Below, one piece after another: positions 3,973 to 28,063 of a stretch of 64,000 nucleotides of DNA. The translations under genes were made by a program, and so were the position numbers. Every line of letters begins with the position of its first letter. Position 1 is the stretch's first letter. This stretch comes from a virus (lineage: Duplodnaviria > Caudoviricetes). Location of the stretch: positions 78,019 through 142,018 of the IMG/VR virus record IMGVR_UViG_3300047539_000078, one strand, 5' to 3'. Below the pieces are notes generated by a model that worked only from the letters and a program-made list of their open reading frames with translations, had not been told where the DNA came from and did no database searches.

Positions 3973-3973
3973 T

Positions 3974-5467: not shown

Positions 5468-5476
5468 GGAGATATT

Positions 5477-7429
5477 ATGGGTCAGTTAGCTTCAGACAAC
5501 TTCACACGTGCAAACGAGAACCCGCTGAGCGACGGCGGCAACTGGACAACCTTGCCCGGTTCCAACGCCTTGGAAATCTCATCGGATTTGTGCCAATCCG
5601 CGACGGCGGGAGGCATGGGCATCGGCTCTGCGGCGTATTGGAACGCCATCACTCCGCCGACGGACCAGTATTCATCCATCACCGTGGCGACCATTTCCAA
5701 CCTGAACGGCAACGGGACGGATGCGGCTGCAGTAGTCCGTGCGCAATCAGGAAGCAGTTCAATCTACTATGAAGGCGGCGTGGGTGCGCAGCAGTCCGGC
5801 ACGACCGGTCTCGGCAACTCGTGCTACCTCTGGATCGGCAAAGTCGACGTATCAAGTGAAACGGAACTTGCACAGGCAGTCGCAGTGGCAAACATCGGCG
5901 ATGTGTTCAACCTCACGGTGCACGGACCTACCCTCCTGCTTCGCCAGAACGGCGCGGTCGTTTTGATCGGGGCGGACTCTTCCCTCGTGAACGGATGGTT
6001 TGGCTTGCATTCCAAGTGCGATGCATCCATCACCACATCGCAGATGTCCGCGTGGAGCGCCGGAACACCGGTACTGAACCTCGCCCCGTTTGCGGATACG
6101 TTCGTCCGTGCCAACGGGGCATTGGGTGCCAACTGGCTGAACATCAACGTGGAAGGAACTCTGAGCATCTCAAGCGATGCGGTATACAACCCCGGAGGCG
6201 GCTACGGTGTGGAAGCATCCATCGGAGCCGACTATCTTCCCGACCAGTACGCCCAGACGACGTTGGTAGCCAACCAGGCTGGAAGCTACGCCGGTGTGGC
6301 GGTAAGAATTTCCGGTAATGGAACCGCCGCCCAGTACTCTATCCCGACCGCGAACGCCTCCTACTACACGTGGGTGATCGGCAACTCCAGCTCATACGTG
6401 CTCCAGAAGATCACCTCCGCCACGTCCGGCTCGCAAACATCCACGAACCTTTGGACCGGAAGCGGCACGGTGAGCAACGGCGACACCGTCCGTCTTGAAA
6501 TCCAGGGCAACACGCTGACATGCTATCGCAACGGTGTGGTCGTCACCACGTACACGGATGTATCCTCCCCGCTGGTGGGCGGACATCCGGGAATCGTCGT
6601 CTACAACGGCGGAACCAGCCCCACCGTGAACGCATTCCTTTCCGGGTCGTTCCGATCAATACCCATCCTGTCTTCCGCGACGGTGCAGTCCGGGGCTACA
6701 CTGTCCACCGCTGGCACGGGCGTCATCAACGCGAACCAGTTCGGCGGCATTTCCAGCATGGGCTCCGTGCCCACACACGAGGGGCAGCTTTTGATTTCCC
6801 AGCCGGGAAACTTGACGGCGGCATGGGCTGACCCGCAAGTACAGGGTTTGTATGCGGTGGGGTCGTTTCTCAATTCGCCGCCATCATACGTAGCCCCCAC
6901 CACGATCCAGCCCGTTCTCATTGGCGGTTCCGATTACGCCGGGTCTCCCGCCCTTTGGAATCTCAAGGTTGATTCGGGCGGTAAAATCTATGTCGGAAAT
7001 TTTCCGTCATTCACATTCACCTACGGCGGAAGCCCACCCACAGAAGGTCTGAATGTCTACGTGCTGAACACCACCTCCACCGAGGTTCCCGCCGCATCAG
7101 GCGGTGCCACGCCGAAGGGCTATCACATCGTGAACAACACCGTGCAGGCTATCAAGTCCACGTTCGGGCAGATATACGGCTACTACCTTGACAACACGGC
7201 CAACGCCGCCACGACTTATTTCCAGTTCTTCAACATTGTGGCTGGCTCGGTTTCGCTGGGATCATCGGCAGCCCTGTTCACCATTCCCGTTCCTGCGGGC
7301 TCGGCTGCGAACTTGAGCATCAGCCCCGGCTGGGCATTCACCACGGCGATATCGTTCGCCGCCACGACCACCTACAACGGCAGCACCTTCGCCGCCAATG
7401 CCGTTGACTGCACGATAGCGTTCAACTAA
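5477..7429 (+). CDS. Virion protein with two concanavalin/lectin-like beta-sandwich repeats
   Basis: Repeats start SDNFTRAN / ADTFVRAN and end in L.V.G.TL....NG; C-terminal beta-rich domain. Confidence 0.6.
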   Translation: MGQLASDNFTRANENPLSDGGNWTTLPGSNALEISSDLCQSATAGGMGIGSAAYWNAITPPTDQYSSITVATISNLNGNGTDAAAVVRAQSGSSSIYYEGGVGAQQSGTTGLGNSCYLWIGKVDVSSETELAQAVAVANIGDVFNLTVHGPTLLLRQNGAVVLIGADSSLVNGWFGLHSKCDASITTSQMSAWSAGTPVLNLAPFADTFVRANGALGANWLNINVEGTLSISSDAVYNPGGGYGVEASIGADYLPDQYAQTTLVANQAGSYAGVAVRISGNGTAAQYSIPTANASYYTWVIGNSSSYVLQKITSATSGSQTSTNLWTGSGTVSNGDTVRLEIQGNTLTCYRNGVVVTTYTDVSSPLVGGHPGIVVYNGGTSPTVNAFLSGSFRSIPILSSATVQSGATLSTAGTGVINANQFGGISSMGSVPTHEGQLLISQPGNLTAAWADPQVQGLYAVGSFLNSPPSYVAPTTIQPVLIGGSDYAGSPALWNLKVDSGGKIYVGNFPSFTFTYGGSPPTEGLNVYVLNTTSTEVPAASGGATPKGYHIVNNTVQAIKSTFGQIYGYYLDNTANAATTYFQFFNIVAGSVSLGSSAALFTIPVPAGSAANLSISPGWAFTTAISFAATTTYNGSTFAANAVDCTIAFN

Positions 7430-10953: not shown

Positions 10954-11242
10954 GATGGACATACTTTTGCATTTCTACGCCGATTTCTTCATCGAGAAGG
11001 GCATCATCCCCAAGAAGGGCGGCGTCGCCAACGAGCACATCGCCTGGATGATCAACGAGTGCATCAGCATGCTCTCCAACCCCGGCGACACCGAGTACAA
11101 CTCCATGTACATGAAGATCAACCGCTGGGTCGGATTTGTGCAGGGGGTCCTTTGGAAAGAGGGACTCTTCACCATCGACCAGATGCGCGAGCATGTCGCC
11201 CTTGCGCATGCCGTCGAAACGGGGATGCGACAGTCCGTATGA
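10946..11242 (+). CDS. Hypothetical phage protein
   Basis: GGAG RBS; HIAWM..K.NRWVGFVQGVL motif. Confidence 0.65.
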   Translation: MDKMDILLHFYADFFIEKGIIPKKGGVANEHIAWMINECISMLSNPGDTEYNSMYMKINRWVGFVQGVLWKEGLFTIDQMREHVALAHAVETGMRQSV

Positions 11243-11643
11243 ACCCCCTGTTCGATTACGAATACGTCTGCTTCATGTTCTCCGGCCTGCGGGGTTGGGT
11301 GCCGCTCACGGCCCAGCATGAAATCACGCCGGAGAATCCGGTCACGTTCGTCCATGACGATTCCCGTCAAACCGCGATTTTCCGTGTGGATCATGTCGGC
11401 AACTTCTGGATGGACATCCATGATGAACAAGGCAACAGCTACAGCAAGATCGTGGAGTGCTCGCAGGAATACATGGAGAGCGAGTTCGGAAGCAAAATGC
11501 AAATCATCGAGATAACGCCGCCATTGCCTGAAGAGGCTGAAGTCTCCGACGCTACGGGGCCATTCACGCGGATCAGCAAGACCAAATGGGCGAGGGGCAA
11601 TCATGTCACAACAGGCGTTGGACGGCGTAATCCAAAAAATTGA
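11239..11643 (+). CDS. Hypothetical protein
   Basis: ATGA-coupled start at 11239; 3' end uncertain. Confidence 0.5.
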   Translation: MNPLFDYEYVCFMFSGLRGWVPLTAQHEITPENPVTFVHDDSRQTAIFRVDHVGNFWMDIHDEQGNSYSKIVECSQEYMESEFGSKMQIIEITPPLPEEAEVSDATGPFTRISKTKWARGNHVTTGVGRRNPKN

Positions 11644-12239
11644 CATAATCTGGGAGAATGTCGCAAAAATAGTCGTAGACCGCGATGAAAAAGAGCGTAG
11701 ATTGCGGCAAATAAAGGACTTGGCTCTATAATGTGGTGAATAATCCGCGGGATAGGGACGCCGTGGGCCTTGCAAAGCAAATCCTGAGCCTCATACCCTA
11801 GCGTTTCATCCCCAAGCGCTTCTTGAGCCGTTTCTGCGCAATCATCGGGGGTTTTAATGTCACTGCTGGCATCCTTCCGATCTTGGCCACGCAGGGCAAT
11901 CGCGTTCTGATCCGTCTGTGCGGTATCCGCCCGCAAGTGTATGGCTTGATTGCGCGAATCATGGCGATCCTCGCCGCGCATAGCAACTTCCTTTTGATCC
12001 TCATGCACCGTGCGCCATGTGGCAAATCCTTGGATGGCGATCATCGCCCCGGCGTATTCCTTGGTGAGTATTCCGTGTTTGGCGAGCCAGAATGCGGATG
12101 TTGCGAAGAACCCCGCAAGGACGAAGTTCCGCCCACCGGCCCATCCCCAAAATCGTACAGAGAGAATGATCGTCAGTTTGTTCCACATCGCTTTAAGCAT
12201 ATTAGTCAGATACTCCCTCGGATTCCAAGGACTCCGCAT
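11601..12239 (-). CDS. Small membrane protein, holin-like
   Basis: Two hydrophobic segments (NFVLAGFFATSAFWLA; YAGAMIAIQGFATW) followed by a charged tail; true end may be ~11800. Confidence 0.4.
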   Translation of the reverse strand: MRSPWNPREYLTNMLKAMWNKLTIILSVRFWGWAGGRNFVLAGFFATSAFWLAKHGILTKEYAGAMIAIQGFATWRTVHEDQKEVAMRGEDRHDSRNQAIHLRADTAQTDQNAIALRGQDRKDASSDIKTPDDCAETAQEALGDETLGYEAQDLLCKAHGVPIPRIIHHIIEPSPLFAAIYALFHRGLRLFLRHSPRLCQFFGLRRPTPVVT

Positions 12240-12244
12240 CGTCC

Positions 12245-14003
12245 TCATACTCGACCGGGGTATTGGCTGAGCGGCTTCGGCGGGGAACGGAATGAGTCGT
12301 TGATGTGGTCAATAGACGCACTCTTGTCGTAGCCACCGAAACCGTTGTAGGGGTCCTTCATCTTGACCGCGAAGTTCATCTCCCGCAGGGGTTCGTTGTC
12401 GTAGTAGTCGTTATTTCCGCCCTCGTCTTCTTCAACGTTGATGGCGATTTCGGCGGCGCGGCTGGTTTGGAGGACCACGTGCACCTTGCCTTCCCACGCG
12501 AACTTGTTGCCCCCACTTGCGTCGAACCGGACGAAGGTGTTCTCGTCTTCATCCGTGGCGTTCTCGACGGCGGTCGTGAGGTACTTGTTGACCTCGTTGC
12601 TGGTCCCGGACTCCAATCCGTACTGGTAGGCCGTGTCGAGGGTTCCGTATACATCGGTGTTGACCCCCGCGTCACCCTCAAGATAGCCGAGGAAATCCTT
12701 CACGTCGCCGACCACGTTCGGTTCCCACGTGAACTCATCCGTCCCGCCTTCCTTCTCGATGAAATCCTTCAACTCGTCGGGGTATGTTTGTTCCAGCGTC
12801 AACCCGATGTTATGGACGGTTTCCGGCTTGACATCGTCGAGCAGGTCGATCATGTCGCTCTTGCTCACGCCTTCCGTGCTGCTGGAATCGCTGTAGTCGT
12901 TTCCCTCGTCCTGTTTTTTGGCCCACTTCGCGGTGTCGTCCCCCCAATCGTCCACCAGTTCGCCCCAATCTCTGTACGTGGCGAGTATCAGTCCGTCCGA
13001 TACCCAGTTATCTTCCTTGGAGCCGAGAAGGGCGCAGATCTTTTTCTTGGCGATGGCGTCTAGCTTCGCGCCGAGGGTGACTCTATTCAAATGGAATACC
13101 CCCGTTCGCGTCAGATACATCTTGAGCGGCATCAGGGCTGGCTTGGTCTCGTAGATGTCGTTCTGTTCCGTCTCGGACAGATCTGATACGCTGAAGTTGT
13201 GGGACGGCATGTACCCGCCGCCGGTGATGCCTTCGATTCTCGGGTCCTTCAGGAGCGAGATGATGTACGGGTGGTAGCGTGCTGCCGGTTTCTCGTTCCC
13301 GCGTCCCTTCATCTCGCCCAACTGCTTGCTCTTCTGGTCGTAGATGAACGTGAGGTTCGGTTCCCAGTACGCCTTGTCCCCCTTCTTACGGGGCTCGCGC
13401 AGGCTGATGATGCGGTCGCCTGTGACCTGTCCCTGGTTGCCGCAATGCCCCATCGCCTTCGCCTCGGCGGGGCAGTAGCCTCGTGGCAAGCAGCCACCAC
13501 GCCCAGCCGTTGTCGAACTTGATGAAGATTTCGTCGCCTTCCTGCGGCTCAAGCATGCGTTTGCTTTCGTCGGCCTTCGCGAGCATGGCGTCTTCAAGCT
13601 CGCCGAACTCCCGGAGGAGTTCCTCCGGCGTCTGAAACTGGAATCTCTTGGACTGGATGTTCACGTCCTCCAACGCGAGGTAGTGCAGGAGCTTCCGCTT
13701 GAGCGGGGGCCAGATCGCCGTCAAATCGGAGGTGGGCTTGCCGGATTTCTGGGCGTATTCCTTTCTCGCATTGTCGAACGACCCTGCGGGGACGACCTTG
13801 ACATCCTCGGCTTGCTTGATCAGATCAAGGCGCACCCAGCGCAGGTACCACGTGATGCGGTCGGCCTTTTCGAGATGCTCCTTCGCCCATGCGACTTCCT
13901 TCTTGGCCATCGCTTCCCACGCGCCGGTCTGATTCGTGGCGGTGATGGACTTCAGGAACGACTTGAACATCTCCATGTAGTCGACGGCCAGGATGAGCAG
14001 CGG
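12245..14003 (-). other. Polyprotein C-terminal module: PcfJ-like domain plus acidic tail
   Basis: EAKAMGHCG, IISLR, EMKGRGNEKP. Confidence 0.65.
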
Positions 14004-17000
14004 CGACGCGAGCTTCATGTCGGCCATCTTGCGGATGGCCGAACGGTCCCATATCTGGTACTGCTCCGGGCTCAGGTCGTCCTCCTCGGTCCAGAAAGCC
14101 CCCTTGTAGCCCTGCTTCTGCAGGATGTCCGCCGCCGTGCGCTGCAGCATTTCGAAGTAGAAATCCTCGCCCCCGAACCCCTGGTAGTCGGCTGCCTCGG
14201 CGATTGTTTGCGGATCGTCCGTCAACCCCTGTATATAGGTGTCCTCGGGGAACGCCTCCTTGATTTCCTTCACCACCCGCAACACGTTTTGGCGTATGTC
14301 CTTGGGGATGGGATCGTCCCAGTGTCCGGTTTCGTGCAGGAGATCGTATGTGCTCGTGCCGTGGTATATGAAGTCGTCGTCTATCTGCGCATTCGTCTTG
14401 ACGGGGCCGTAATCGGCATAGCCCGTCCCTGCGGGACCGTAGAAGAAGCCCTCCGTATGCTCGGGTTCGGAGTGGCGCTCCACGTCCACCCATTCCGCGA
14501 CCTTGGAAGACTGGTGCCGTAGGCTGTCGGATTCCAGCCAATCCACGGTCTCCTCGACGCTCGTGAACTCCACGTTCCCCACGCCCCCGTTGCGCGTCCA
14601 CTCGATTATGACCCCATCGGTCGGATGCTCCATGATGTAGTCACGCATCTTCGCCTTGGAGCCGGAGTCCAGCGTCCCCACCTGGAAATTGGTGGAAGGC
14701 ACTGTCTTGTTGGCGACGCGCCAAGACCCCCACACGTTGAAGCGGATCGCCCCCTTGTCGAGCGCCTGTCTGACCAGCTTGACGGGGTCGTAGAAGACGG
14801 AACTGGATTCCGCGAGTCCCAGGCGCTGCGCCAGCAGGTTGTGCTCGTCGTGCACATTCTTGCAGTATTCCACGCTGCCATCCGGCATGATGAATCCGCC
14901 GTTGCGCCAGTTGCGACCGGCCTCCGTGAGAAGGTTCTCATTGACGGCTTCCTTTGCGCTGGCGGCCTTGGTTTGCTCGCCCATTTCGACCGCGTAGCCG
15001 AATCTCTCGTTCCACTGGGTCCAGAAGTCCTCGGGCAGCTTGCCGTAATGAACGACCATGCGAACCACGGTCTTGCCCTCGGCGTTCTTGTATACGTACT
15101 GGCGTCCGTCGCGGATTTCCACGACCGCCACGATGTGGTTGGAACCGGAGTATCCGATGGGGGTCGTCACGCGGGCCGTTGCACGGTAGCCCTTCTGCTC
15201 GTACGCCAGCGGGCGCATAGTGCGCGTGATCTGTTCTGCATGCTTGCGGAAGTCCGCTTCGCCTTGGGCCACGGACGGGAACAGCGTGTCCTTGGGCGGC
15301 GTCTCATCCCACTTGCCGTTGAACACTTCCGTGTACGACTTTCTTACATCGTAATCCTTCATGCCCTTGGCGAAGTGTGCGGCCAAGCGCCCGAGTGCAG
15401 GGAGCCATGTGTCGGTGACGAGCTGCTCCAAGCGGGCACGCAGGTCGGCGTGCATCTCCTTCTCCTGTTCCTTGAACTTGTAGTCGAACATTTCCATGGC
15501 GTGCTTGATGTAGTTCTTCTTGTATTCGGCCGCATTGGACTGCCAGCTCGCACTCACGCCAGGCTGGGTTGCGGCGATATAGACTATCGTGACGTGGTAC
15601 TGGCTGTCGCTGATGTGCTGGATCGGGGCTCCCAATGAACTCACGATGCTGTCCTCGTCGAGGAAGAACGTCTGCGGTTGGAGTTCCGCCACGACGACGA
15701 GCTTGCGGCCAGTCCCGTTCTGCCCGTTGTCGTCGCGGACGCTGCCGGTCGCGGTCATGAGGTTCTGCGTGACGTAGATGCCGCCGTAGGCTTCACGGCT
15801 AGGCGTGTGGATACCGGCATTCGGGTCGCTGTCCCAGTTCTTCTTCTTCCCCTCGGGAACGAGCCCCTCCGCTATGATGGAACGCAGGTTCTTGATGCTG
15901 GTCCCGTGATACCAGATGCCGCGCTTGGCGCTGAACTTCTCGATGTCGGCTTCGGGAGTGAGCTGTTCGGGTGTGGGGTTCCCGTTTATGCCCTTCCACA
16001 TGTAAATGTCGGACTCTTCGTCCTCATCCCCGTTTTCATTGGCTTCATAGGTGTAGTCGAAGCCCATCTTCTCCCAGAAGCCTGCGGAGTTACCGTCACC
16101 GGTGTCGCCCGCGACCAGGCGCAGGAGCTTGATGGTTTCGGGGATGGACGCCTCAAATTCCGTCCATGCCGTGCGACCGCCGCCCTTGCCGCGATCCTCG
16201 GGCTTGAGTTCGAACATGTCGATCCAAAGCGAACTGCCTTCCTGGTGGAATTCAAGTTTGCCTTTAAGACCCGCTGTCTTGGACGATTCCCGCCACTTGC
16301 GAACATCCGTCTTGACGGGCTCTTCCCCGGTTACCATCCAGCGGATGGCTTCGTCGGGCGTGAGCTTGTCAATGTAGTTCTGCGGATTGAAAAATTCAAT
16401 GCTGCAATGAATTATAGTCGCTTTGTACTTTCTTATGGTATTTGCTATGAGTTTGCGGGTTTCCGGCGTATCGTTCATCACGGTGAAGTCGGGATTCGTG
16501 GAACCCTGGACGCGGATATTGCCCGCACGTGCAGCTTCCGATACGACATCCGTTCCTTCAAACTCGCCGTCTTCGTCCACATCATCGTAATCTACGTCTA
16601 CCAGGCCATACCGCACGGCTACTTGCCAGTGCTGTTCACCGTTGCATGGGATGAATTTTCCGTTTGACGCCGCGATCCACCCCGCCGAAAGAAGTCCGGC
16701 GGCGTCCTTGAATAGCGAGGATTGGAGATTCAGGCCGGACGCGCTCGGCGGTTGGTCAGTCGTCTTAGCCTTATCACGCTCCCGCCACTTCGCAACAAGG
16801 TCAGCCTCCTCCTGCCGTTCCGCAATGAACTTAGGATCGGCTGGAGGCAGCTCCGTCGGGGCAGAATTCCAAAGCTCCTGCAGCTTGGCTTTTTTGTCAT
16901 CGTCCTGGGGGATGGTCCACTTGTCCCCGATCATGGACCCGTTCAGGAATACGGGGTCGGTCGTCTGGGTCATGCGAACGTTGGGATCGGGTGACTTTGA

Positions 17001-20000
17001 CTTATTCCACAGCCACCGGCTTACGCCCTTCCCTCCGATGCGGGTGGCCACGGCGAAGTATAGCTTGCCGCTCGGGAACTTACACAATGCGATCCAGTAC
17101 GGCTTCACTGGGGATTTATCTTGGACATACGATTCATCGGAATGCTCGGTGACAAAGTCCCCCCCGTACTTGGCGTTGTACTTGTCGGCATACAGTTTCC
17201 AACTGGGGCCATGCCCCGTTCCCTTCTGATTGCGGACGAACATCTTGTAGCCGACCGTCCCCATCCCTTCATAGCGCTGGAGTTCTTTAATGCCGTTGAC
17301 GAGCGAATCGGCATGGTGGCAAAGTTCATGGGCCAGGACGCGGCGCAGCGTGTTTTCATCGCCCACTATGGATTTTTGAACGTCTATGCGGGTGTTCGCA
17401 CCCCAGGACAACTGGTTGTTTTTGATTGCTATGCGCCAAGTGTCCTGTCCCCACCAGTTCGAACGCTGTTGGTTGACGATCTTGAGTTCCGGCTCCGGAA
17501 GTTCTTCCCCCAGAATCGGGAAAAGCTCCCGCATCACACGCTGCACTTGCGCCAGTTCTGATTGTGTTGCTGCAAGATGGGCCGTGTTCGTCTTCACCAC
17601 TTGGATTTGGCCGGAATCGAAGACGGCGTAGGATATGCCGCCGAATTCCCCCTCGCCTTCGTCGCAAACCACGCCGTCGTATCCCAGATGGCGGATTGCA
17701 TCCACGAACTTCTTGTCGTCCAGCAGCTTCCACTCCTGCCCTTGCTCGTCCACCCGCAGTTTATTGGCGTCTATGCCGTAGTTCTGCCACGGGAAATCAG
17801 GCAGAAGATTGTCGCGCAGTTCTTCCAGCAGCGTGTAGCGTGTCTTGCCCCCGTCGAACGGAAGGTCAGGTTGGCTCACATCGGCGTCGATCCACGATGC
17901 ATCACGGAAATCCAACGGGTTGTCGATGGTGATGTAGCACTGCTTGACGTAGCGCTTGTCCCCGTGCTGCTTGGTGCGGTTCTCCGCCCAGTTCCAAGCC
18001 ACCTGCGAGTCGGGGGTGAAGAAGTAGGCGTGCGTCTTAACCGTGTAAGAGATGCCGAAGAGCCCATGGGTCCGGTTCGCCACTTCCTGCGGGGCGAATT
18101 CCTCGAACATGTTGGGCGTGCCGTGGAATACGGGTCCGATTCGATTCGCCTTCTTGAACAGCTTGCCTACGCGAGTCGAACCGAATGTGCGCTTCGGATT
18201 ATCCCAAAAATTTTGGGCATCATTGGAGTGAGGCAATGAGGGTGCGATCTTCTTGCCGAGCAGCTTTTCGGCTGCGGAATACAATACGGACCCAATCCCC
18301 TGGCGGCGATGATTAGGTTCGACTTCAATGGCTCCCTCTATTTTATCTTCATACTTGGTGTGAGGACCCCCGAACGCACTTCCAACTACGCGGTCATCAT
18401 TGTCCACTACCCAAAAATTCCAATAGCCTTCTTCGGTGGATTGGAATGCATAAACACCGTACTCCTTAAAAGTGTCGACCTTTTTGGCTTGGGCTTTGTA
18501 GGTGTCCAGCCACATTTCGGTGAAACGTTCCCATCTTTCAGGGTCGTTTGACGGTCTGTTTTTATATTCAGCTAGCTTGCCCGTGCGAGTCACGCCGAGG
18601 TCGTAGGTTCCATCGACAGCCTCGCCGCCTTCCTCCACCAGCTTTTCGATCGAGGGCAGGCTCAATCCGAATCCACCGCCTCGACGGTCGGGCTGGTTCG
18701 CCCACCCGTTGGAGCCTTCCGGGTATTCCGTATAGCGGCGCGAATCGAGTTGCGGGCTGTCGGCGGTTTTCGTAACTCTAGACGGCTTTTCCAGACTGAA
18801 ATCGATATCCTCACCCTTTCTCACTAGTTTCTTAGTAAACGAACGTCCTTGGTATTCCATTTTTTTGTACATCCCAACCGTAGCGTCGAATTGAACGTTA
18901 TCCCCTAAGGAAAGACCTGCGGACCAGCCTCCTCCGGCAATCCACACATGGTCGGCGACTTCAGAACCGTTTTGCTTCAAATTTTCCATGCAAATGTAAC
19001 CCTTTCGCCCCATTGAACCCACAGTCCCAGTGAATGTCTTGCGTTCGTCTAAGAACTCCGCTAGTCGGTCGCGGGTTGAACTCTTCAGCAGCCAATGACC
19101 GACCTTGCTGCCGAGCACCCAATCGCCCTTGGGGGCGTACGAGGACTTGTCCCCGTGGAGCTGGTGATGCAGTTGTATGAACCACTCTGAGCGGAAATCG
19201 GAATGGGCGTCCACGAAATCGCTTCCGTACTTCCCGTTGAACTTCTGCGCGAAGTAAATCCACGGCCCCATGTGGGAGTCGTTGAACACCTGGGTCCGGT
19301 CGAACAGAGCCTTGTCGGGCTCCTTGCGCTCCGCCACACGCTTCATGTAGTCCATATAGGTCGCATAGTGGCATATCTCGTGAGCGAGCACGCGGCGGAA
19401 CAGATCTTCAGAGAGTGTGCATGCCTTCTCGACCGTGATCCATACATTGAGCTTGCTCGTCGTGCCGTTTATGTGGCATACCCCCATCGCTTTGGGGGAC
19501 AGGTTGTCTACGATCACGACACGGGGACGCTCGCTAACATCGGGGATCACGGACATCAGTTCCGCGACGATGGCATCGACATTCACGTCGGCTGTACTGG
19601 CTGCCACCTTGCCCGTGTTCTCCAGCCAATCGGTGACCTCAGGGACGCTGTTGAATTCCTCATATCCGCCTTTCCATTCTACGATGATGAAATCGATCTT
19701 GACGGGATCGGCGAAAAGGAATTCGGAAATCTCTCGCTTGACGGTCGAATTCAGGCGGGTGACCTCGATGTAGACCCCCGACTTCGCCCCGTAATCAGGG
19801 ACGATGCGGACGGCACCCTTGGTGAGGGCATCCGTCTCGCTCTTAAAGCCCAGTCTCAAAGCGAGATTGCCGTGAGTCTCGTTCTGGCGGGCATAGTATT
19901 CACCGTCTACGATCCAGCCCCCATCGCTGAAGATGGTGAACTCCTCATCTTTGGCGTAGGGTTCGGTGGGCACGTTGCGCATGTCCCATCCGCCCGTCTT

Positions 20001-23000
20001 GTCAAGCCACAGCCGAAATCCTTGAAACGCTCCTGGATGTTCAAGTCGACGATTTCTACTAACCCGGCGCTGCGTGTCCGTCTTGTCGAGCCACAGCCCA
20101 ATGGCGTGTCCGGTTTTTTGATCCCAGAACTCCTCCGCACCGGAACTGCTTCTGATGGATTCGTAGCCGAGGGACGCGAGGATGCCGCGAGATTCGTCGA
20201 AGTCGGACTGGTCGTCTGCCACGATGTCCGTACCGGCGCTCGCCGCCTTCTGGATGTACGGAACTTCCTTCATCACTTCCCGCCCTTCATAGATCAGCGG
20301 TTCCGCCCCCACGTTGTATCCTAGGAGGCGCAGCACCTTCATGTATTTGTTCGTCTTGTCGGGGCTTTGCGATACCGCATGCAGCTTGCCGTATGTGTCC
20401 AGCCACCCGTCGATCACCTGCTTGATGCCGTTCACGGTCTTGCGCCCATCGGCGGGCATCTCCGTCAGCGGCTGCGTATTCATGTGCTGGCTCTTGTCGG
20501 CCATGTTGAAGCCGCGACGCTGGATGCCGATCTGGAAGAAGTCCGGGATGAGTTCGGTGCCCATCAGGACGAGTTCATAGTCCCCGACTTCCGCCTCGTC
20601 AATGATGTAGCTGCCCGTCAGCTCTTCTATTTCGTCCCGGTTCTCCGGCGTGAGCGCTGCGGTCTTTCCGGCGAGCCCGTTCAGCGTGCGGGTGCCGCCT
20701 TCCACAAACCATCCCGCGAGGTCGCTGCGCGGGTGGACGAGGTTGAGGATGCGGTCGATGATCTGGAGCTTGTCCTCGGCTGTCTTGGCCTCCCGGAGAT
20801 TCAACGCCTCGTTTGAAAGGGCATTTGCCGCGTAGTCGCTGATTCTCCAGGACCCGTGCTCGTCATCGAAGAAAGACTCGTTGATTTCAAAGTAGTTTTC
20901 GGGAAGCCCCTCTTCAGTCAAATCAGTAGCGGTCAATTGGGCTCTCCGCATAGTCAAGCGGGTTGTTCATGCGTGTGCCCGGTCAGGATGTTGTTCACTT
21001 CGATCTTGTGGATGTTCGTGACGATGATGTCGGCAATCTTGTTGATGCCAGCCTCGTCCCGCACGAATCCGAGCTTCGCGTAGTCATTCCAGATTTTCTT
21101 CAGGCGTCCTGCGGGGACGAGCGTCCATTGCTGGCGGTATGCCTTGTCATTCAAATGGGCGGCGTACTCGCTCAACAGGGCGCTTGGGCGACCTATGTCA
21201 TGACCTTCTACGTGAGAGTACACCGTGTCTTCGGACGCGGCGGTCTTCGGCTTGACCATCCGCACCTGGTTCGGCTTGAACACGATGGCGTCGAAGGTCC
21301 CGTCCTTCTCGGGCAGGATCACGCCGTCGTAGTCCCGCTTGAGTTCCCCGAGGGAGTACTTCTCGTACTCCGCCCACCCGGCGGGGTTCTTTATGTTCAC
21401 GTACATCCCGAGGATGTGCTTCGCGCCGGAAGCGCCCGACTCCCCCCGCTCGATCTTGGAACGGTCGGAGGTGACCCAGAACACGCCCTGCGCCCCCTTG
21501 CCCATGTTCACGCGGGAGAACTGCTCGTTCGTCCCGTGGTAGCAGACGAGCGGCTTCCCTGCGGCGTCGACGACCTTGGAACCGGCGAACCAGGCATCGA
21601 GCGGCTGCGAGGCGAACACGGTTTGTTTTATGGTCTGTATGGCGTCGGGCGGGATATCGCCCAAGTACGCCGCCTGGCAGACGTATTTCATGCTGACCTG
21701 CCACGGACACAGCGCCCAGTTGTCCCCGCATTCGTTGCGGATGCTGGCCGGAACCTCTTGCCACATATCGGGAAGCTCGTAGTCATCAGGACGCAGGCGG
21801 TCTTTGTTCAGCTTCGAGAGGTCGATGCGGAGGACAACCCAATCCTTGTCAGCAACACCCCACATACCGGCATAATTCCGCGCCGTGTACTCGTCGCAGG
21901 CGATATAGATGGCCTTTCCCCACTCGACATGGGACTCAGACATATCAGACTTGAGGCCGTTTTTCAGGATATCACCCAAATTGGCTCTATCGGTTCCGTG
22001 ATAGCCGAACTTCGGCTCCTTGGCGGCGGAGGTCATGGACATGCCGGAGTTTTCCAGCCAGTCCACGCACTCCTGGCTGCCGTCGAATGACTCGGTCTCG
22101 CCAATCGCAACAGCATCAATGAAAATCTTGTACTCCGAGGGATGCGTGATCAGGTGGTCCTTCACCAATTGGCGAGTGTTGCCCGCACCCAGATCGTACA
22201 CCTCGATGCTGACTTCCTTGTTGTAGAAGGACACCCGAACTGCACCCGTTTCCAGGCATAGGCGACCGCAGAAGTGTAGTCGCTTTTCGGCGCTAATCCA
22301 AGTCGAGTCGCAGCCCGTCCATGGTCTTCGTTATACTCCAGAGGCAGCTCCTTGCCGTCTGCGGTGATCCAAAGTCCACGGACCCAACCGGCGGCGGTCT
22401 TCGGCTTCCCCATCAAGCTGTGCAGCTTGGCGTTGTCGTTTTTCAGGAGTTCCACGAGGCCGGGATGGAACGACCCCGGCTCGGTTTCCATTTTTTCGAG
22501 GACTTCTTCCAAAGGCATCCATTCGAGGGCATCCGTTTCCCACTCATGGGCATCCCCCGGGTTATATGCGAATTCGGCACCGACCACCCCGATGAAGTTG
22601 TGGTACTTGAACCCGCCGTCCGTGAAGACGTGCGCGGGAATGAGGTTGATGCCGCCACGGTACCCGGTCTCCTCGCCGAGTTCATTCTTGGCGCTCTGTT
22701 CCGGGGACATTCCCGATTTGACGGCACCGCCTATGGTGCCCCAGCAATCGCCTTGGTGAACCGCGTTGCTGCGCCACGCGAGACATACCGTACCTTTTGA
22801 CGGGCAGACTGGCAGGATGCCGGACGCCGCATCCCCCTCCCCGGCCCACTGGCCTTCCTCGATGTACCCTTCGGCGGCTGTCTTGCGGTCCCGGACGGCT
22901 TCCTTCGCCTTTAAATTGCCGCTCAAGACAAACCACTCGCCCTGCATCCCTGAGTAATGGCTTTCGCCTGGCCGGGCACGCATCCGCCAAGTCACTATGT

Positions 23001-26000
23001 CCGACAACTGTACTCCCTGGATTTTGCCGACGCTCTGCCAGACGAACCCGCGACCTTCCGCAAAATAGAAGGCGGTGTCCCAATTGGAGGACCATGAAAG
23101 GACTTCCCGGTGGCTCCCGGTCCATGTGGGGGTGCCACGGTAATGCCACTTTTCGTCGTACGCGCCGCTGTAGTGCGGTTCCCCACGGTATATGCACTTA
23201 CCGCCAAAAGCATTCGGCACGAACGGCGGGATGGTCTTGAGTATCGGAGCCAGTTTTTCGATGGGAGCATCGGGGACTTGCACATAGTCCACGACCATAT
23301 TCCAAAGCTCGTCGTCCTCGGCGATCTGGCGGCAAGCCTTGTCGTACTTGCTTTCAGCGGCGGTCTTGTACACGCTTCTGATTTGGCTCGGCTTGAAGAC
23401 CACCCATGTATCCCCGTCCCAAAGATCATCGAGTTCCGGATCGGACGTGATGCGGAGCCCGTCGTACCCGTTGCCCGCATCCATGAGCAGTTGTCCGTTT
23501 TCAAGTTGTCCGTTCAGGTATTCCGACGGGGAGATGGTCAACGGACGCTTGACGGACAATTGGACGGGGTGTACGTTGCTGCCCTCATCCTTGCCGGTGT
23601 ACTTGCTGGCGACATCCGGGTTGGCGGTAAAGAAAATCCCCTCTTCGCCAGACTTGAATTTTTCGAACTGGTGGATCGTGCCGTGATACACGGTCAAGGG
23701 GTTTCCTTGGGCATCGACGACCTTGGAACCGGCGAACCATTTGGGGTCTGCGGCACCGGCCTTGCGGTTCGGCGAGTACAGATTAGCCTTGTATTCGATC
23801 CGCTCCTCGAATGCGTTGCTTTCCAATGCCGTGTGGATTCTTGACAGGGCGCGGTCTAGGTGATTAGCGGCTTCTTCATAGTCCCCTGCCGCTGCCTCGG
23901 CTTCCGCATATATCATATCTCCGTTGGAATACTTGACGCGCTCATTCAGATAGTCAGAAATTCCTGGGCCGCTCTTCGTCTTTGCCAACGCCGTGAAGTC
24001 CTTGATGATGGTCACCATCTTGGGAAGCATCTGGACGTAGAGACGCCGGACTGCTATCGGGTTCTCATCCTTGCTGGAGTCAAACCACGCCTTGCGGGCG
24101 TCCATGTTGATGATTTCGTTGTGCATAGCGTACAGGCGCGAGTATGCATCCGCATCGCCAGCGGAGGCGGTCTTCTTCCCATGCTCAGTGTCAGCCGCGT
24201 CGTACACATCCACACGTATGACGGCTTCCGGCGGTACCAAGCCCGTACCCCGCCACAGGTCGCCTTCGACGTTCTTCAACCCCGACTTGATCTGGTCCAA
24301 TACGACCACGGCGAACTCGCCTTCAAAGTGTGTCCCGTGGTTATTGGGGTTCCACACTCTGCCGCAGCCTGTGAGGCACCCGTAGTACAGGGCGTCGTTG
24401 ATGTCGGTAGTGGCGTAGACTTCCTTGCTCTGGGACCACAAACCGTTCACGCGGATCGCCTCTGCGGCCTCCAAGCTGGTTCCGTGGTAAAGCTCGCCAG
24501 CGGAAGCGGTCTTGATCCCAAGCGGCACTGGCGTCTGCTTCTTGTCCTTCGACGAGAGTACGACCTCGTCTACCTGGAAGCTGATGCCCTCGAAGGCGTT
24601 GGAATTGCGGTAGCGCTCCGCGACCTCCGGCTTGACGAACGCGATGGTCACGTGCGGGGCGAATTCGAAATCCTCGGGGCGGTTTCCGAGGAACTTGTCG
24701 ACGACGCCGTGAAGCGCCGTGAGCTGCGGTGCTTGGACTAGTGCTACGATTGGGCACGTGCCCTTGCTGCTGGCACTCGGCTGGAAGACCTGTAGGCGGC
24801 CAAGCGTGGCTGTGAAAGGTGGCTGGTCGCGCAGGGCTCCCCCAAGCTTCTCCGCGTTTTCCTCGACGCCGTAGCGGACGGTGATATGCGGGGTTTTCTC
24901 GCGTCCATCCCCGGCCAGGTCGTCGTCGGGGATTGTGGAATTCCCCAGTTCAATGATTTTCTTCGCGGCTTCATCCGGCAGGTTGATGAGGACTATGGCT
25001 TGGGCTGCGGCGGTCTTGCTCTCTGCGGTCTTTCCAGCCGTGATGGTGATCGGACCTTCAGGGGACGGGTCCTCCCATCCTACGTTCGGGTCCTTCAGGA
25101 TTCCGGTGAGCATGATCTGTGCGCCGTCCTTGAGGCGGCACTCGTCCTCATCATCCCCAATGGATGGGTGGAGGTTTACGGACAGCGTCATATCCCAGTC
25201 CACCATGCTTGGGCTGGCGATATCCGCAGCAAGCGTCACATGATCGCCACGGGTTCCCCAGTGGGCTTCGGCTTTGTCTTCCGTCCACGACCAGAACACC
25301 CCGGCACCCGTCGTCTTCAGCGTTTGCCCTTTGGCGATTGAAATCTGCCGATAGACGGTGAGCGGAAAATCTATGGAGCGGTATATGCTCACTCTTTTGT
25401 CGTACTCGTATTCTAAGGAATCATGCGCCAACCGGAGGACTTGCTTCTCCTGCTGCGCCGGTGTCAGGGATTCGAAGTTCGGAACGCTTTCATCGGCGTA
25501 TTCGGCGAAATATCTCAACCCGTCGCCCAAGTCGGCGAGGAGTTTCTTCAGCCCTCCCTGTCTCTTCACCCATGCGTCGAAGTTCGGGAAGTTCGGTGCC
25601 GCCAATCCCTTCTTCAGCAAACCCGACTTGAATGCAGCCGTGATGGCCGGATTCTTCGGGTCGAACTTCCCGGCGTTGCCGATGGCGCTCTTGACTTTGG
25701 TCGGGTCCCAGATGATGTAGTGCTTGGTGCCCCACTCCATCTCCATGGGCTTACCCCAACGGGCGGGCGTGCCGAACTCGCTGTAGGCGTCCTGGATGAT
25801 GCCGTCGAAGCCCATCTCCCGGTACACATCGGCTATGAAACTGCTCTGCGCCTGGTTCCCTTCGTTATCCTCAAAGGAGTATTCACCGTTGCGTACAGCC
25901 TTTTCAAAATCCCAGGCATTGAAAGACCCGCCGCTGTTATCGATGATATCGCCCCACGCTTTTTGAACATCGGCGCTGTCGTATCCCGTCGCGGCGCGGT

Positions 26001-27142
26001 TCATCGCGTGGTACAGTTCAAGTCCGTTGCCTGAATCCTCACTGTCGTCGTCTTCGGCGATTTGAACCTCAAACATAGTGCCGCCGTTCTGTTGGACGAT
26101 GACTGGGTTTTGGATGCTGAGATACACGGGCAAGGTCATGCCTTGACTATGCCCGGCGATCTCAGTTGCAGCCTTTTCCTTTGCTTTGTTGTAAAGCTTT
26201 TGGTACTCGGACTCTGGGTCGCTGCTCCACTTCGGTGTATTTCCCGTACCGTCTTCATCTTCCCAGTTGCTCATGATCTCCTCGGCACGGTGCTCAATGC
26301 GGGAGGTAATGTCCGGACCTGTCTTAGTCGCGTAGTTCTCGCTCACGTCGTACCGGGAGGATGTGAAGTACAGCCCCTTGCCGTAGTAGTTCTCCGCATT
26401 CGTCTTGTCCGGGTCGAACGCCTCGAAGTCGTGCGTCGTGCCGTGGTAGACCACCAACGGCTTGCCGTCCTCGTCGCGCACCTTGGACTTGCCGAACCAC
26501 TGCTTGAAATTCTTGGTCTGCACCGCTGGCTTTTTTGCTTAGGTTTTGGCTGGAGAAGCTTCGGCTTAACCTTGGCTTAGGCTTTGACTTCGTCTTCGGT
26601 TGCTCCGGCTGTGTCGCAGGCTCGTCACGCTGCAGCACATCCTCGTCTTCATCCCGTTCGGGGAACTGCTGCGAGACCTCGGGGATTTCCGGTGCGATTT
26701 GCGTGGGAGATGCGGCGGTCTTCGATGTCCGGTTTTCCTCCACGGTTGCGCGGAAGTCCTCGATCGGGAATTGCTCTACCGCGCCGAGGCGTTCGTCCTT
26801 CCAGCTCTTGGGGTAGTGCTTCAGGTACAGGCTGGTGGCCTCATCAGCGGAGTCTGCACCCAAAACGCACTTGTATTCATCCGTCGTGCCATCCTCGTTT
26901 AATTGTTCTATGATATATGCATTGGGGGCATTCTCATTTGGTCCGATGTAGACATCCAAAGGCTCTTCGTCTCTTCCTAACGGAGCTTCATCCGCATCGG
27001 TTCCGATAAAGCCGTAATCCACGACCATCACGCGCTTCCAGGATTTGCCGTCTTTGTCTTCACCCTCACGGATGGAGCCTTCAGGCCACTCTACGACGAC
27101 GGGAATCCCTTGAAATGTTTTCTTTGTGTGCTCTGGCTTCAT
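12245..27142 (-). CDS. Giant polyvalent protein / effector polyprotein (~4,900 aa if frameshifts at ~26535, ~22255, ~20960 and ~13490 are corrected)
   Basis: Five consecutive ORFs (272, 1453, 426, 2523, 450 aa). Three junctions fall inside a domain (AVAYA|LETGAVRV, WAWWL|LPRGYC..MGHCG, NILTGHT|..ISDYAAN) and one in a K/P-rich linker; no clear RBS at the internal starts. Confidence 0.8.
15939..16268 (-). other. Polyprotein module: GNAT acetyltransferase 2
   Basis: LWIDMFELKPEDRGKGGG ... SAGFWEKMGF. Confidence 0.8.
16710..17567 (-). other. Polyprotein module: SprT-like zincin metallopeptidase 2
   Basis: VLAHELCH ... GHGPSW; paralogous to zincin 1 (K.N.KYG.DFV..HSD). Confidence 0.8.
18156..18566 (-). 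other. Polyprotein module: GNAT acetyltransferase 1
   Basis: IEVEPNHRRQGIGSVLY ... S.DAQNFW. Confidence 0.8.
19090..19598 (-). other. Polyprotein module: SprT-like zincin metallopeptidase 1
   Basis: VLAHEICH ... SHMGPW. Confidence 0.75.
22402..22872 (-). other. Polyprotein module: Nudix hydrolase
   Basis: WGTIGGAVKSGMSPEQSAKNELGEETG Nudix box. Confidence 0.85.
24514..25005 (-). other. Polyprotein module: 2H phosphoesterase, Acb1/T4 57B-like
   Basis: Two HxT motifs: PHITVRYG and APHVTIAF. Confidence 0.8.
25645..26523 (-). other. Polyprotein module: ART-PolyVal-type ADP-ribosyltransferase
   Basis: FKQWFGKSKV.DEDGKPLVVYHGT, GLYFT, VYLSIQNP, GFDGII, VKSAIGN.G.FD. Confidence 0.8.
26723..27142 (-). 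other. Polyprotein module: inorganic pyrophosphatase-like (InPase) domain
   Basis: E.P.GS.R.G.D.DG..W...M..DYG....D..PLDVYIGP....Y.I.Q....DE.K..LG. Confidence 0.8.
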
Positions 27143-27948
27143 TATGAGATATCCCAGTCTTTGCGTAACTGACGGACGGTAGTTCCCCAGTATCTTTTGA
27201 TGCGGGTACGTATGGCTTTTACGGACTTTAGGCCGAATTTTGCGGCTAGTTCGGGGAGTTCTAATCCTTCTCTGATGTAGGACTCCAGTGGTTCCTTAGC
27301 AATATGCGCATGCATAGACCCTTGGGGGCATTCCAGTCCCAGACCAAGGCGTGCGGGAATGGGGTTGGTGCCAAAATGGCGGACAGTTTCACGGCACAGT
27401 CTTGCTTTGGATATCCCCGTGCGCTTACGGATTTCTTTCATAGTCAACCCATCTCGGAAAAATTCCAGCAGTTCACATTTGCTTATCTGTGGAAACAATC
27501 TCAATCGGCTCGCTTGCTGACTTTTGCGAAGTTTAGCTCGATACTCAGATGAAGCCGCTCGTTTCAACGCCTTTTTGCTTATTTTCTCCTTTGCTTCCTC
27601 GGTCATTGGACCACCAAATCCGCCTTCATGGGCATTATACCCATTCGGCGTTAGCGTACCAAGGCTGGCAATGTAATGCCGTTCAAGGCTATCCAACTCT
27701 ATCTGAGTGTCGGCATAAGCCAGTACTCTTGTTTCAAAAGCGTTTGCCCCGTGCTTCAAAATAGCATTGTCTAGGATAGGCTGGTGCCCTGGGTTGGTTC
27801 TTAGATGGCGCAGCACCTCAGCCCATCGCACCTCTACCCCTCTGGTGGTTTGACCAACGTAGCCTTTTCCATTGACCGTGCATTGACGAAGATATACGGT
27901 ACCGTAGGGTTTGTCGGCTGCGGTGTGGTTTGGGTTGGTTCCAGGCAT
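27142..27948 (-). mobile_element. Free-standing GIY-YIG homing endonuclease
   Basis: GTVY...NGKGYVGQT..R, LE..YI, NGYN, NUMOD3-like MTEEAKEKIS, C-terminal HTH-like repeats; lower GC than flanks; stop overlaps the polyprotein ATG (TAATG). Confidence 0.85.
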
Positions 27949-28063
27949 CTTCGGACGGGCTCCGCCCTCAATTATGCGCCCCAAAGTCGGAAAAACGGGT
28001 ATTATACCGCATGCCGTCCCGTAGACCAGTTAGTTCAACAATACACTATCAAATCTATGGATA

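Follow-up and report, generated by a model that had tools for sequence, protein, structure and literature searches.

Several large phages load enzymes and internal proteins into the prohead, where the head protease trims them, and eject them together with the DNA, as in the systems of T4 (Alt and IPI-III; gp21), phiKZ (gp175) and SPN3US (gp245). The motif of head proteases of the T4/phiKZ type is three residues long, L/I-x-E or A/S/G-x-E, and also occurs in capsid and scaffold proteins. In MARTX toxins, effector domains are freed in cis by an internal cysteine protease domain (CPD) acting at Leu-x linkers, while the sites of herpesvirus assemblin have the form V/L/I-x-A-S, with cleavage between Ala and Ser, and assemblin also cleaves itself to either side of its core. 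Iyer, Burroughs, Anand, de Souza and Aravind (2017; PMC5512222) described the polyvalent proteins that phages and conjugative elements encode. They predicted processing into separate domains by zincin autoprocessing, and their paper, from which the word 'linker' is absent, describes no junction motif. Neither a site nor a protease is known to have been defined for this processing.

The giant gene and its modules

The window, the whole stretch of 64,000 nucleotides analysed here, belongs to a 142 kb IMG/VR viral contig from an uncultured jumbo phage, with a CheckV completeness of about 42%. Its giant polyvalent-protein gene occupies positions 12245–27142 of the minus strand and was delineated from the ORF list, translations, Pfam and homologues. 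The gene has ~4,969 codons lying in five frames, the component ORFs being 26324–27142, 22162–26523, 20954–22234, 13386–20957 and 12245–13597, all on the minus strand. There are four frame breaks, probably representing five indels. As homologues encoded by single ORFs align through all four breaks, and many comparable ORF overlaps are found elsewhere on the contig, assembly indels are the likely cause of the five-frame reading. Break J1 (26529–26533) lies at an A6 run, is crossed by ~30 homologue alignments, and removal of one A connects the InPase linker with ART-PolyVal 1. Break J2 (22234–22236) lies at a GGG run within the first of four copies of a ~120-aa domain, and P0057 and P0012 align across it. 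Break J3 (20930–20966), inside module 14, probably consists of two close indels; a gene boundary at this position is ruled out, since the alignments of P0128, P0129 and P0007 run across it. Break J4 falls within the interval 13389–13660 of the PcfJ-like C-terminal module, which five homologue alignments cross, and most likely lies near 13486–13490. Read through these breaks, the gene is predicted to encode one polypeptide of about 4,970 residues with some 25 host-modifying enzyme modules.

Pfam domains in the giant protein include InPase, at least four ART-PolyVal domains, 2H, NUDIX, GNAT, a PARP/Tpt1-like domain and two SprT-like zincins. The preliminary description had recognized a phage polyvalent protein, and this assignment is borne out by the many unrelated effector domains (Pfam), the continuous chain (homologue alignments) and the viral nature of the IMG/VR contig. 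The HE.CH signature is kept in both zincin modules, as HEICH in the first (18771–19598; PF10263, E 4e-9, and a purpose-built clade HMM) and as HELCH in the second (16710–17567; the same kind of clade HMM, i-E 1e-62). The PcfJ-like C-terminal module (12248–14018) begins at a KMAD/MKLAS junction, has a model pLDDT of 88 and corresponds to a stand-alone gene of 599 to 642 aa in relatives; PcfJ-like modules were located at 77 loci. Its conserved Cys/His core bears a weak likeness to acetyltransferase folds (Z 6.4). This module was considered as a hidden protease and rejected, as Foldseek had no match at E <= 0.001 and the VIA-align matches, all to acetyltransferase folds, were only weak. Pfam found no cysteine-protease domain in any piece of the giant protein, and neither a MuF domain nor any other domain known from packaging was found in it.

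On the contig, which represents about 42% of a genome, Pfam S78, S77, HK97 capsid, ClpP, S49, Trypsin_2 and Prok-JAB gave no matches, and no capsid, portal or protease gene is recognizable. Putative 'head' ORFs at window positions 1797–7429 were rejected as capsid or portal genes, having no Pfam match and partial PHROG matches only; they have no conserved counterpart in either of the two complete related genomes considered below. The neighbours of the giant gene, here and in relatives L005 and L007, encode RtcB, helicases, a methyltransferase and homing endonucleases rather than head proteins; a KTA-rich polyvalent gene of relative L100 lies immediately after baseplate genes. Searches gave no close DNA or protein relatives among cultured phages, and a scan of IMG/VR with P0002 as a single protein gave no close relatives.

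The joint peptide at module borders

Neighbouring modules of the giant protein meet at a short peptide, [K/I]-T-A-[A/S], which takes looser K-x-A-[A/S/G] forms in the C-terminal half. Every minus-strand motif coordinate listed in the preliminary description was reproduced (e.g. KTAA at 26722, 25017 and 23367; KTAS at 24513 and 24174). KTAA at residue 141 (26711–26722; this and all following sites are on the minus strand) ends the InPase module; in P0012, P0126 and P0127 the InPase module likewise has this motif at its end, and different modules follow. ITAA at residue 501 (25633–25644) is located in the tail of ART-PolyVal 1, where distant relatives have NPDIRF/Y. A double site, KTAE-S-KTAA (residues 705–713; 25006–25032), separates an RSE-ART-like module from the 2H module, which itself ends in KTAS at residue 878 (24502–24513), followed by AGELYHGT. 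KTAS at residue 991 (24163–24174) comes after a small ART-like module, and KTAA at residue 1260 (23356–23367) ends ART-PolyVal 2, with 71 homologue alignments stopping just ahead of it. The NUDIX domain is placed directly between KTAA at residue 1421 (22873–22884) and KTAA at residue 1582 (22390–22401). An AlphaFold model of residues 488–1637, built on a patchwork alignment, had a pLDDT of 48 and was usable for NUDIX only; NUDIX is its sole confidently folded domain, and the confident block stops at the second of these KTAA copies. Stand-alone NUDIX proteins start and stop at about the positions of the two.

Further along the chain, KTAA at residue 1968 (21236–21247) ends ART-PolyVal 3, and module 15 starts with KTAA at residue 2163 (20655–20666), where P0007 reads KKAA, and ends with KAAS at residue 2302 (20238–20249), close to residue 2306 where the L005 alignment stops. 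KVAA at residue 2515 (19599–19610) lies after repeat R2 and before the first zincin, and KTAD-SPQL at residue 2795 (18759–18770) is a string that occurs twice in identical form in relative P0126. KTAG at residue 3625 (16269–16280) follows repeat R3, and KAAS at residue 4062 (14958–14969) aligns with KAAA of P0126. KTAE at residue 2123 (20775–20786), earlier taken for an intradomain copy, is indeed inside module 14, and the three homologues covering this position do not conserve it.

Counts made on the 4,969-residue read-through, with X placed at each frame break, show a strong excess of the core motif: KTA occurs 13 times versus 1.55 expected (Poisson P 1e-8), KTAA seven times versus 0.12 and KTA[AS] nine times versus 0.22. 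Of all tripeptides, only HGT, the catalytic one of the ART domains, is more enriched in the protein than KTA. Outside the giant protein, the remaining 40,041 residues encoded on the contig have no excess (KTA 15 versus 10.0, KTA[AS] 3 versus 1.6). For 12 of the 13 KTA sites, a homologue BLAST alignment ends at most 6 residues away on either side (background 38%, P 7e-5), and 10 of the 13 have at least two such ends (background 21%, P 2e-5). At these breakpoints the relatives have a different adjoining module. In L005, where the module order differs from that of the giant protein, alignment ends coincide with the motif (alignment end/motif residue: 145/141, 507/501, 710/710, 876/878, 2164/2163, 2306/2302, 2794/2795, 2858/2859 and 3481/3482).

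The wider K-x-A-[ASEDGN] list put forward earlier as a boundary motif stands for its enriched KTA core, but its looser members are not enriched by count (15 versus about 11 expected), and with nine of the 15 near a breakpoint (P 0.07) they do not exceed chance as a class. Individual members, namely KAAS 20249, KLAE 18578, KDAA 16709 and the KMAD/KLAS pair at 14030/14015, do fall on breakpoints in the comparison with a relative. The nine KTA[AS] copies are all confined to residues 141–2163, and over the last 2,800 residues the motif becomes sparse. The earlier claim that nearly every boundary has the motif is therefore valid for the N-terminal half but not for the C-terminal half. The forecast of ~25 products was too confident, as about 12–17 junctions have a convincing motif.

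KTA is also the top-enriched tripeptide in P0158 (20 versus 1.48), P0126 (12 versus 1.14), P0177 (11 versus 1.06) and P0130, proteins whose modules are largely different from those of the giant protein. In relatives the same upstream module retains the motif while the downstream module is replaced, and exchange between relatives falls exactly at the motif in homologue alignments, in agreement with the earlier suggestion that the modules are swappable. G002, one of two complete related genomes, has a degenerate x-T-A-A or K-x-A-A form. The idea that the motif is a general feature of all ART-PolyVal proteins was rejected, K.A[AS] being found upstream of only 18 of the 266 ART anchors that the first homologue set contains. 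The motif is a module-independent punctuation common to the relatives, specific to their clade and conserved as a peptide.

The motif is missing from stand-alone modules (PcfJ-like, 123-aa SprT-like) and from the C-terminal end of multi-module proteins. Several multi-module proteins open, whatever their first module, with a short leader ending in the motif (MSLLDKKTA.., MPEPTQNKTAG..), and the leader of P0158 has KTAA at residue 12. Its absence from stand-alone modules and protein ends and its presence in leaders are what would be expected of a cut site rather than of a tag.

Head proteins of complete relatives and the reading of the joint

Of the 164 ORFs of the contig, 53 have a counterpart in G001 and 31 in G002, two complete genomes of related jumbo phages; the median identity is about 41%, and the shared genes include those for tail and baseplate. 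In the head block of G001, which was anchored on portal and protease and whose limits were set after looking at the data, K.A[AS] occurs 32 times versus 13.0 expected (P 6e-6). The corresponding figures are 7 versus 1.6 in the polyvalent protein of G001 and 41 versus 34.6 in the remaining 68 kaa. The G001 head-maturation protease (phrog_18299) has KIAA at residue 36 and KAAS at residue 267, flanking its matched core (residues 82–239), the major head protein (phrog_2522) has KTAG at residue 18 and KLAAS at residue 25, and the portal has KTAA at residue 14. When all 316 ORFs of G002 are ranked by the motif, the top 13 include both polyvalent proteins, the major head protein and the protease, together with four proteins homologous to members of the G001 head block; the combined statistic for G002 was selected after looking at the data. 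In both genomes K-x-A-[A/S/G] is concentrated only in the protease, the capsid N-terminus, the portal, and scaffold-like and polyvalent proteins. The x of K-x-A-[ASG] is variable in the head proteins, whereas the giant protein strongly prefers T. The protease of the relatives has no match to Pfam S77 and a sub-threshold match to XkdF/S78_2. A Trypsin_2 gene of G002 was rejected as the head protease, as it sits among replication genes and not head genes.

This distribution indirectly supports what we consider the most likely role of the joint peptide, with a probability that we place at about even: it would be a processing site for the head-maturation protease of the phage, and the chain would be packaged, cut and delivered. 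The chain, or large pieces of it, would enter the prohead, where the phage's own protease would read the joint peptide in trans. Proteolytic cutting at the joints would give separate ART, 2H, NUDIX, GNAT, InPase and zincin enzymes, which would exit with the DNA at the next infection. Cleavage, the scissile bond, the protease that cuts, packaging and delivery are the parts of this explanation that we infer. The position of the L100 gene after baseplate genes counts in its favour. Against it count the location of the giant gene away from head genes here and in L005 and L007, the failure to find a packaging domain, the variable x in head proteins of the relatives, from which the link to the protease is drawn, the scarcity of the motif towards the C-terminus, the choice of the G001 limits and the G002 statistic after looking at the data, and a codon bias described below.

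The best-surviving alternative, which we nevertheless think unlikely, is that the joint is never cut and is a short, flexible, Ala-rich connector spread by module duplication and recombination. It would persist, on a supposition to which we give equally little credence, because recombinants joined at the connector keep their domains intact. Module shuffling exactly at the motif is what such a connector would produce, and the degenerate G002 form is compatible with it. The codons of the motif are likewise biased in the giant gene: AAG-ACC is used at nine of 13 sites versus 33% expected (P 0.008), and ACG, which accounts for 40% of Thr codon usage in the gene, at none of the 13, hinting at some DNA-level constraint or shared ancestry. 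However, the codons vary in L005, and the motif is retained in P0158 and P0177, which have few modules in common with the giant protein. A DNA-level repeat was rejected as the cause of the motif, since its flanks are not conserved and its codons vary in a relative, although the giant gene itself does have the codon bias just described. In several proteins, including the portal and the major head protein, the motif is 5–25 residues from the N-terminus with nothing upstream to join, and the enrichment in the relatives' head proteins, which are not modular, also argues against a mere connector.

It is less probable still, and on the whole improbable, that the joints are cut, before or after delivery, by a metallopeptidase of the polyvalent locus, either one of the two embedded SprT-like zincins, in which HExxH is retained, or a small SprT-like or JAB gene located just upstream in relatives. 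Such genes exist, a 123-aa SprT-like gene lying directly upstream of KTA-rich P0009 in L006 and a 151-aa Prok-JAB gene directly upstream of P0142 (11 KTA) in L099, and metallopeptidase processing is what Iyer et al. (2017; PMC5512222) predicted. But P0126 (12 KTA), P0012 (6) and P0177 (11) contain no recognizable peptidase domain, the zincin HMM has no match within ±10 kb of P0126 or P0012, nor a further one on the contig of the giant gene, and zincin-bearing P0007 has one KTA only. The metallopeptidase route also leaves unexplained the motif class in the capsid protease, capsid protein and portal of G001 and G002. As this class is common to head protease, capsid protein, portal and polyvalent proteins, the evidence favours predicted cutting by the head protease over cutting by the embedded zincins.

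The motif might instead be a short linear signal with a role unrelated to cutting, such as docking of a chaperone or packaging factor or modification by the protein's own transferases. Its low information content and exposed inter-domain placement would suit such a role, as would the many ART and GNAT modules, whose targets could be Lys or Thr. This reading is nevertheless very improbable: it has neither precedent nor partner, and the motif is distributed like known prohead-protease motifs, flanking the protease core, occurring at the capsid N-terminus and being dense in a scaffold-like protein.

Comparison with known systems

The giant multi-effector chain, with its ART-PolyVal, InPase, 2H, NUDIX, GNAT and zincin modules, and the mosaic module order among relatives agree with the polyvalent proteins of PMC5512222. 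Unlike those described, it has a defined tetrapeptide at its joints, which in relatives co-occurs with head-protease substrates, and a PcfJ-like C-terminal module instead of a MuF domain. A junction signal common to relatives and capsid-maturation substrates makes the 2017 prediction of processing a simple experiment. We propose tentatively, and with somewhat less assurance than the processing site itself, that K-T-A-[A/S] may be the cutting code of an uncharacterized group of jumbo-phage head proteases, faintly XkdF/S78_2-like, and that the phages would use it to load a freely reshuffled magazine of at least a dozen host-takeover enzymes into the capsid as one polypeptide, with exchange at the cut sites. 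If true, this would supply a new substrate rule for phage head proteases of a group so far unstudied; module borders, and hence new anti-defence enzymes, could be read directly off the sequences of hundreds of uncultured jumbo phages; and exchange at cut sites would mean that any new domain is released automatically.

As in MARTX, unrelated effector domains are strung together with short unstructured candidate sites between them, and domains are exchanged (between strains in MARTX). MARTX, however, is a bacterial secreted toxin with a CPD, whereas Pfam recognized no cysteine-protease domain in the giant phage protein. In pattern, the motif resembles the assemblin site: the presumed P1 residue would be Ala, followed by Ser or Ala as P1'. 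With the substrates of the T4/phiKZ type, the multi-module relatives share short N-terminal leaders finishing in the motif. The motif itself is K-T-A-[A/S] here, and K-x-A-[A/S/G] in relatives, instead of L/I-x-E or A/S/G-x-E, and whereas the T4/phiKZ type involves single proteins with one site, here one chain has a dozen or more internal candidate sites.

Contents and continuity of the giant gene

The IMG/VR viral contig (142,018 bp, the window being its last 64 kb) is rated 42% complete, which suggests a jumbo-phage genome of about 300 kb. The giant gene (27142-12245, minus strand) is read as five overlapping ORFs in three frames and encodes an InPase, at least four ART-PolyVal domains, a 2H phosphoesterase, NUDIX, GNAT and PARP/Tpt1-like domains and two SprT-like zincins; its product belongs to the polyvalent proteins as defined by Iyer et al. 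2017 (PMC5512222). The four frame breaks, J1-J4, are best read as assembly errors, because single-ORF homologues align uninterrupted through all of them and 18 more same-strand ORF overlaps of >45 nt are found elsewhere on the contig. On the minus strand, J1 is located in an A6 run, J2 in a GGG run inside a domain that occurs four times, and J3 in mid-module, where it probably holds two indels. The overlap of only 10 nt had suggested J3 as a gene boundary, which was rejected given its mid-module position and the alignments of the homologues P0128, P0129 and P0007 that pass through it. Translation through the gene, with X placed at each break, gives 4,969 residues.

The C-terminal ~590-aa module (12248-14018, minus strand) is a conserved gene, often stand-alone, on many 300-560-kb phage contigs (L005:24906-26834 and 77 IMG/VR loci, L009-L085). 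It has 19 invariant residues, C..E...MGHCGN among them, and the protein-atlas lead is PcfJ-like. In its AlphaFold model (pLDDT 88) the core (residues 152-303) is weakly similar to HAT1/MYST/GNAT acetyltransferase folds (Z 6.4). On the upstream side of the giant gene, the end of a GIY-YIG homing-endonuclease-like gene (27142-27984, minus strand) reaches one base into the start codon. Downstream (10975-12248, minus strand), ORFs of 266 and 215 aa, neither with a family match, share 175 nt in different frames; an indel has probably split a further gene here, whose start overlaps the giant gene's stop.

The junction motif and module borders

The preliminary description had proposed a K-x-A-[A/S] linker at domain boundaries, and all its motif coordinates were reproduced. 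In the read-through of 4,969 residues there are 13 KTA (1.55 expected), seven KTAA (0.12 expected) and nine KTA[AS] (0.22 expected), the last all within the first 2,163 residues. By enrichment KTA ranks second of all tripeptides, after HGT, which recurs as the ART catalytic motif, and the remaining contig proteome (40 kaa) has no KTA excess. The wider list has weaker backing, its K-x-A-[ASEDGN] forms lacking Thr numbering 15 versus about 11 expected. ACG makes up 40% of the gene's Thr codons but none of those at the 13 KTA sites (e.g. 26711-26722), and AAG-ACC is found at nine of them versus 33% expected (P 0.008); codon choice at the motif is more variable in the relative L005.

Module borders were approximated, independently of the motif, by the points at which BLAST alignments to about 125 homologues stop. 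Twelve of the 13 KTA sites are within 6 residues of an alignment end, versus 38% of all positions (P 7e-5); for the non-KTA variants P is 0.07. L005, a locus on a 332-kb contig, has many modules in common with the giant protein in a different order, and alignment ends against it coincide with the motif, give or take a few residues. Some weak variants are among these sites (KAAS 2302, KLAE 2859, KDAA 3482 and KMAD/KLAS 4375-80), and the last of them opens a module that in relatives forms its own gene (599 to 642 aa). AlphaFold was informative for NUDIX alone: the confident block has KTAA on both sides, and stand-alone NUDIX proteins start and stop at about these two positions. An unnamed ~120-aa domain, present four times (22049-22389, with J2 inside, 19611-20015, 16281-16697 and 14505-14957, minus strand), has a D/E-W-L-E motif near the end of each copy, and a junction motif comes after it.

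Distribution among relatives and in head genes

KTA is enriched (P < 1e-3) in 17 of the 222 homologues of at least 800 residues, and is the top-enriched tripeptide in P0158 (5,005 aa; 20 versus 1.48), P0126, P0177 and P0130, although P0158 and P0177 have few modules in common with the giant protein. An InPase or 2H module ends in the motif irrespective of the downstream module, and several multi-module proteins open with a short motif-terminated leader (e.g. MSLLDKKTA), whatever the first module. Stand-alone modules lack the motif, and it does not close multi-module proteins. The junction motif is clade-specific; in the first homologue set it is upstream of only 18 of 266 ART anchors. ART-PolyVal domains end in NPDIRF/Y in distant relatives and in NPxITAA in the clade of the giant protein. 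In distant giant polyvalent proteins (P0140, P0159, P0167, P0267 and others) N-P-D-I-R-F/Y-S closes each such domain, in up to 14 copies, at the position aligned with N-P-x-I-T-A-A in the clade of the giant protein, which suggests that other clades have a second junction signal. In L005 a NUMOD3 endonuclease gene divides the array into genes of 3,510, 1,151 and 642 aa (L005:20565-21491; L005:21451-24906), and the polyvalent array thus tolerates splitting.

Two complete related genomes, G001 (299,875 bp, terminal repeats) and G002 (332,300 bp), carry the PcfJ-like module and have 53 and 31, respectively, of the contig's 164 ORFs in common with it (about 41% median identity), a syntenic baseplate block included. 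In G001, K.A[AS] occurs 32 times (13.0 expected) in the block for which the portal and a PHROG 'head maturation protease' served as anchors, 7 times (1.6 expected) in the polyvalent protein and 41 times (34.6 expected) in the remaining 68 kaa; the limits of this block, and the combined statistic for G002, were fixed after data inspection, so P values are indicative only. The motif flanks the matched core of the G001 protease on both sides, and is found at residues 18-28 of the major head protein and residue 14 of the portal. When all 316 ORFs of G002 are ranked, the polyvalent proteins, protease and major head protein are among the top 13, as are a scaffold-like neighbour (11 sites) and further homologues of head-block proteins. 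The relatives' protease has no Pfam S77 match and a sub-threshold XkdF-like match, and no homologues of these motif-bearing head genes were found on the 142,018-bp contig, 42% complete. The contig's DnaB-like helicase (contig positions 37932-39710, plus strand; L002:17932-19710) has KTAS 27 residues before its C-terminus, and that of G001 (288384-289874) ranks second genome-wide for K.A[AS] (4 versus 0.3); these copies may be chance or mark a non-head substrate.

Fate of the joints

A head protease would cut the giant chain at its motif joints, a reading to which the sequences give about an even chance. Counted against it are the non-structural gene neighbourhood, the fact that no packaging domain was found, the sparseness of canonical sites in the C-terminal half and the codon bias at the motif. 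That the motif is simply an uncleaved joint is rather unlikely. Cutting by locus-encoded metallopeptidases is more doubtful still: both embedded zincins are catalytically intact, and two relatives have a small SprT-like or JAB gene immediately upstream of a KTA-rich ORF, but peptidases were not recognised in P0126, P0012 or P0177, nor in the 10 kb on either side of P0126 and P0012. The SprT-like gene (L006:5609-5980, 123 aa) and the Prok-JAB gene (L099:9549-10004, 151 aa) occupy the same slot, with a stand-alone InPase gene on one side and the KTA-rich giant ORF on the other, and may represent non-homologous replacement of a partner peptidase.

The polyvalent protein class and the idea of its processing are already known; no junction signal defined and tied to head-maturation substrates was found in the literature searched. 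The motif is distributed like the prohead-protease motif of T4 and phiKZ-type phages, although the code differs, being K-x-A-[A/S/G] with Thr strongly preferred in the effector chain.
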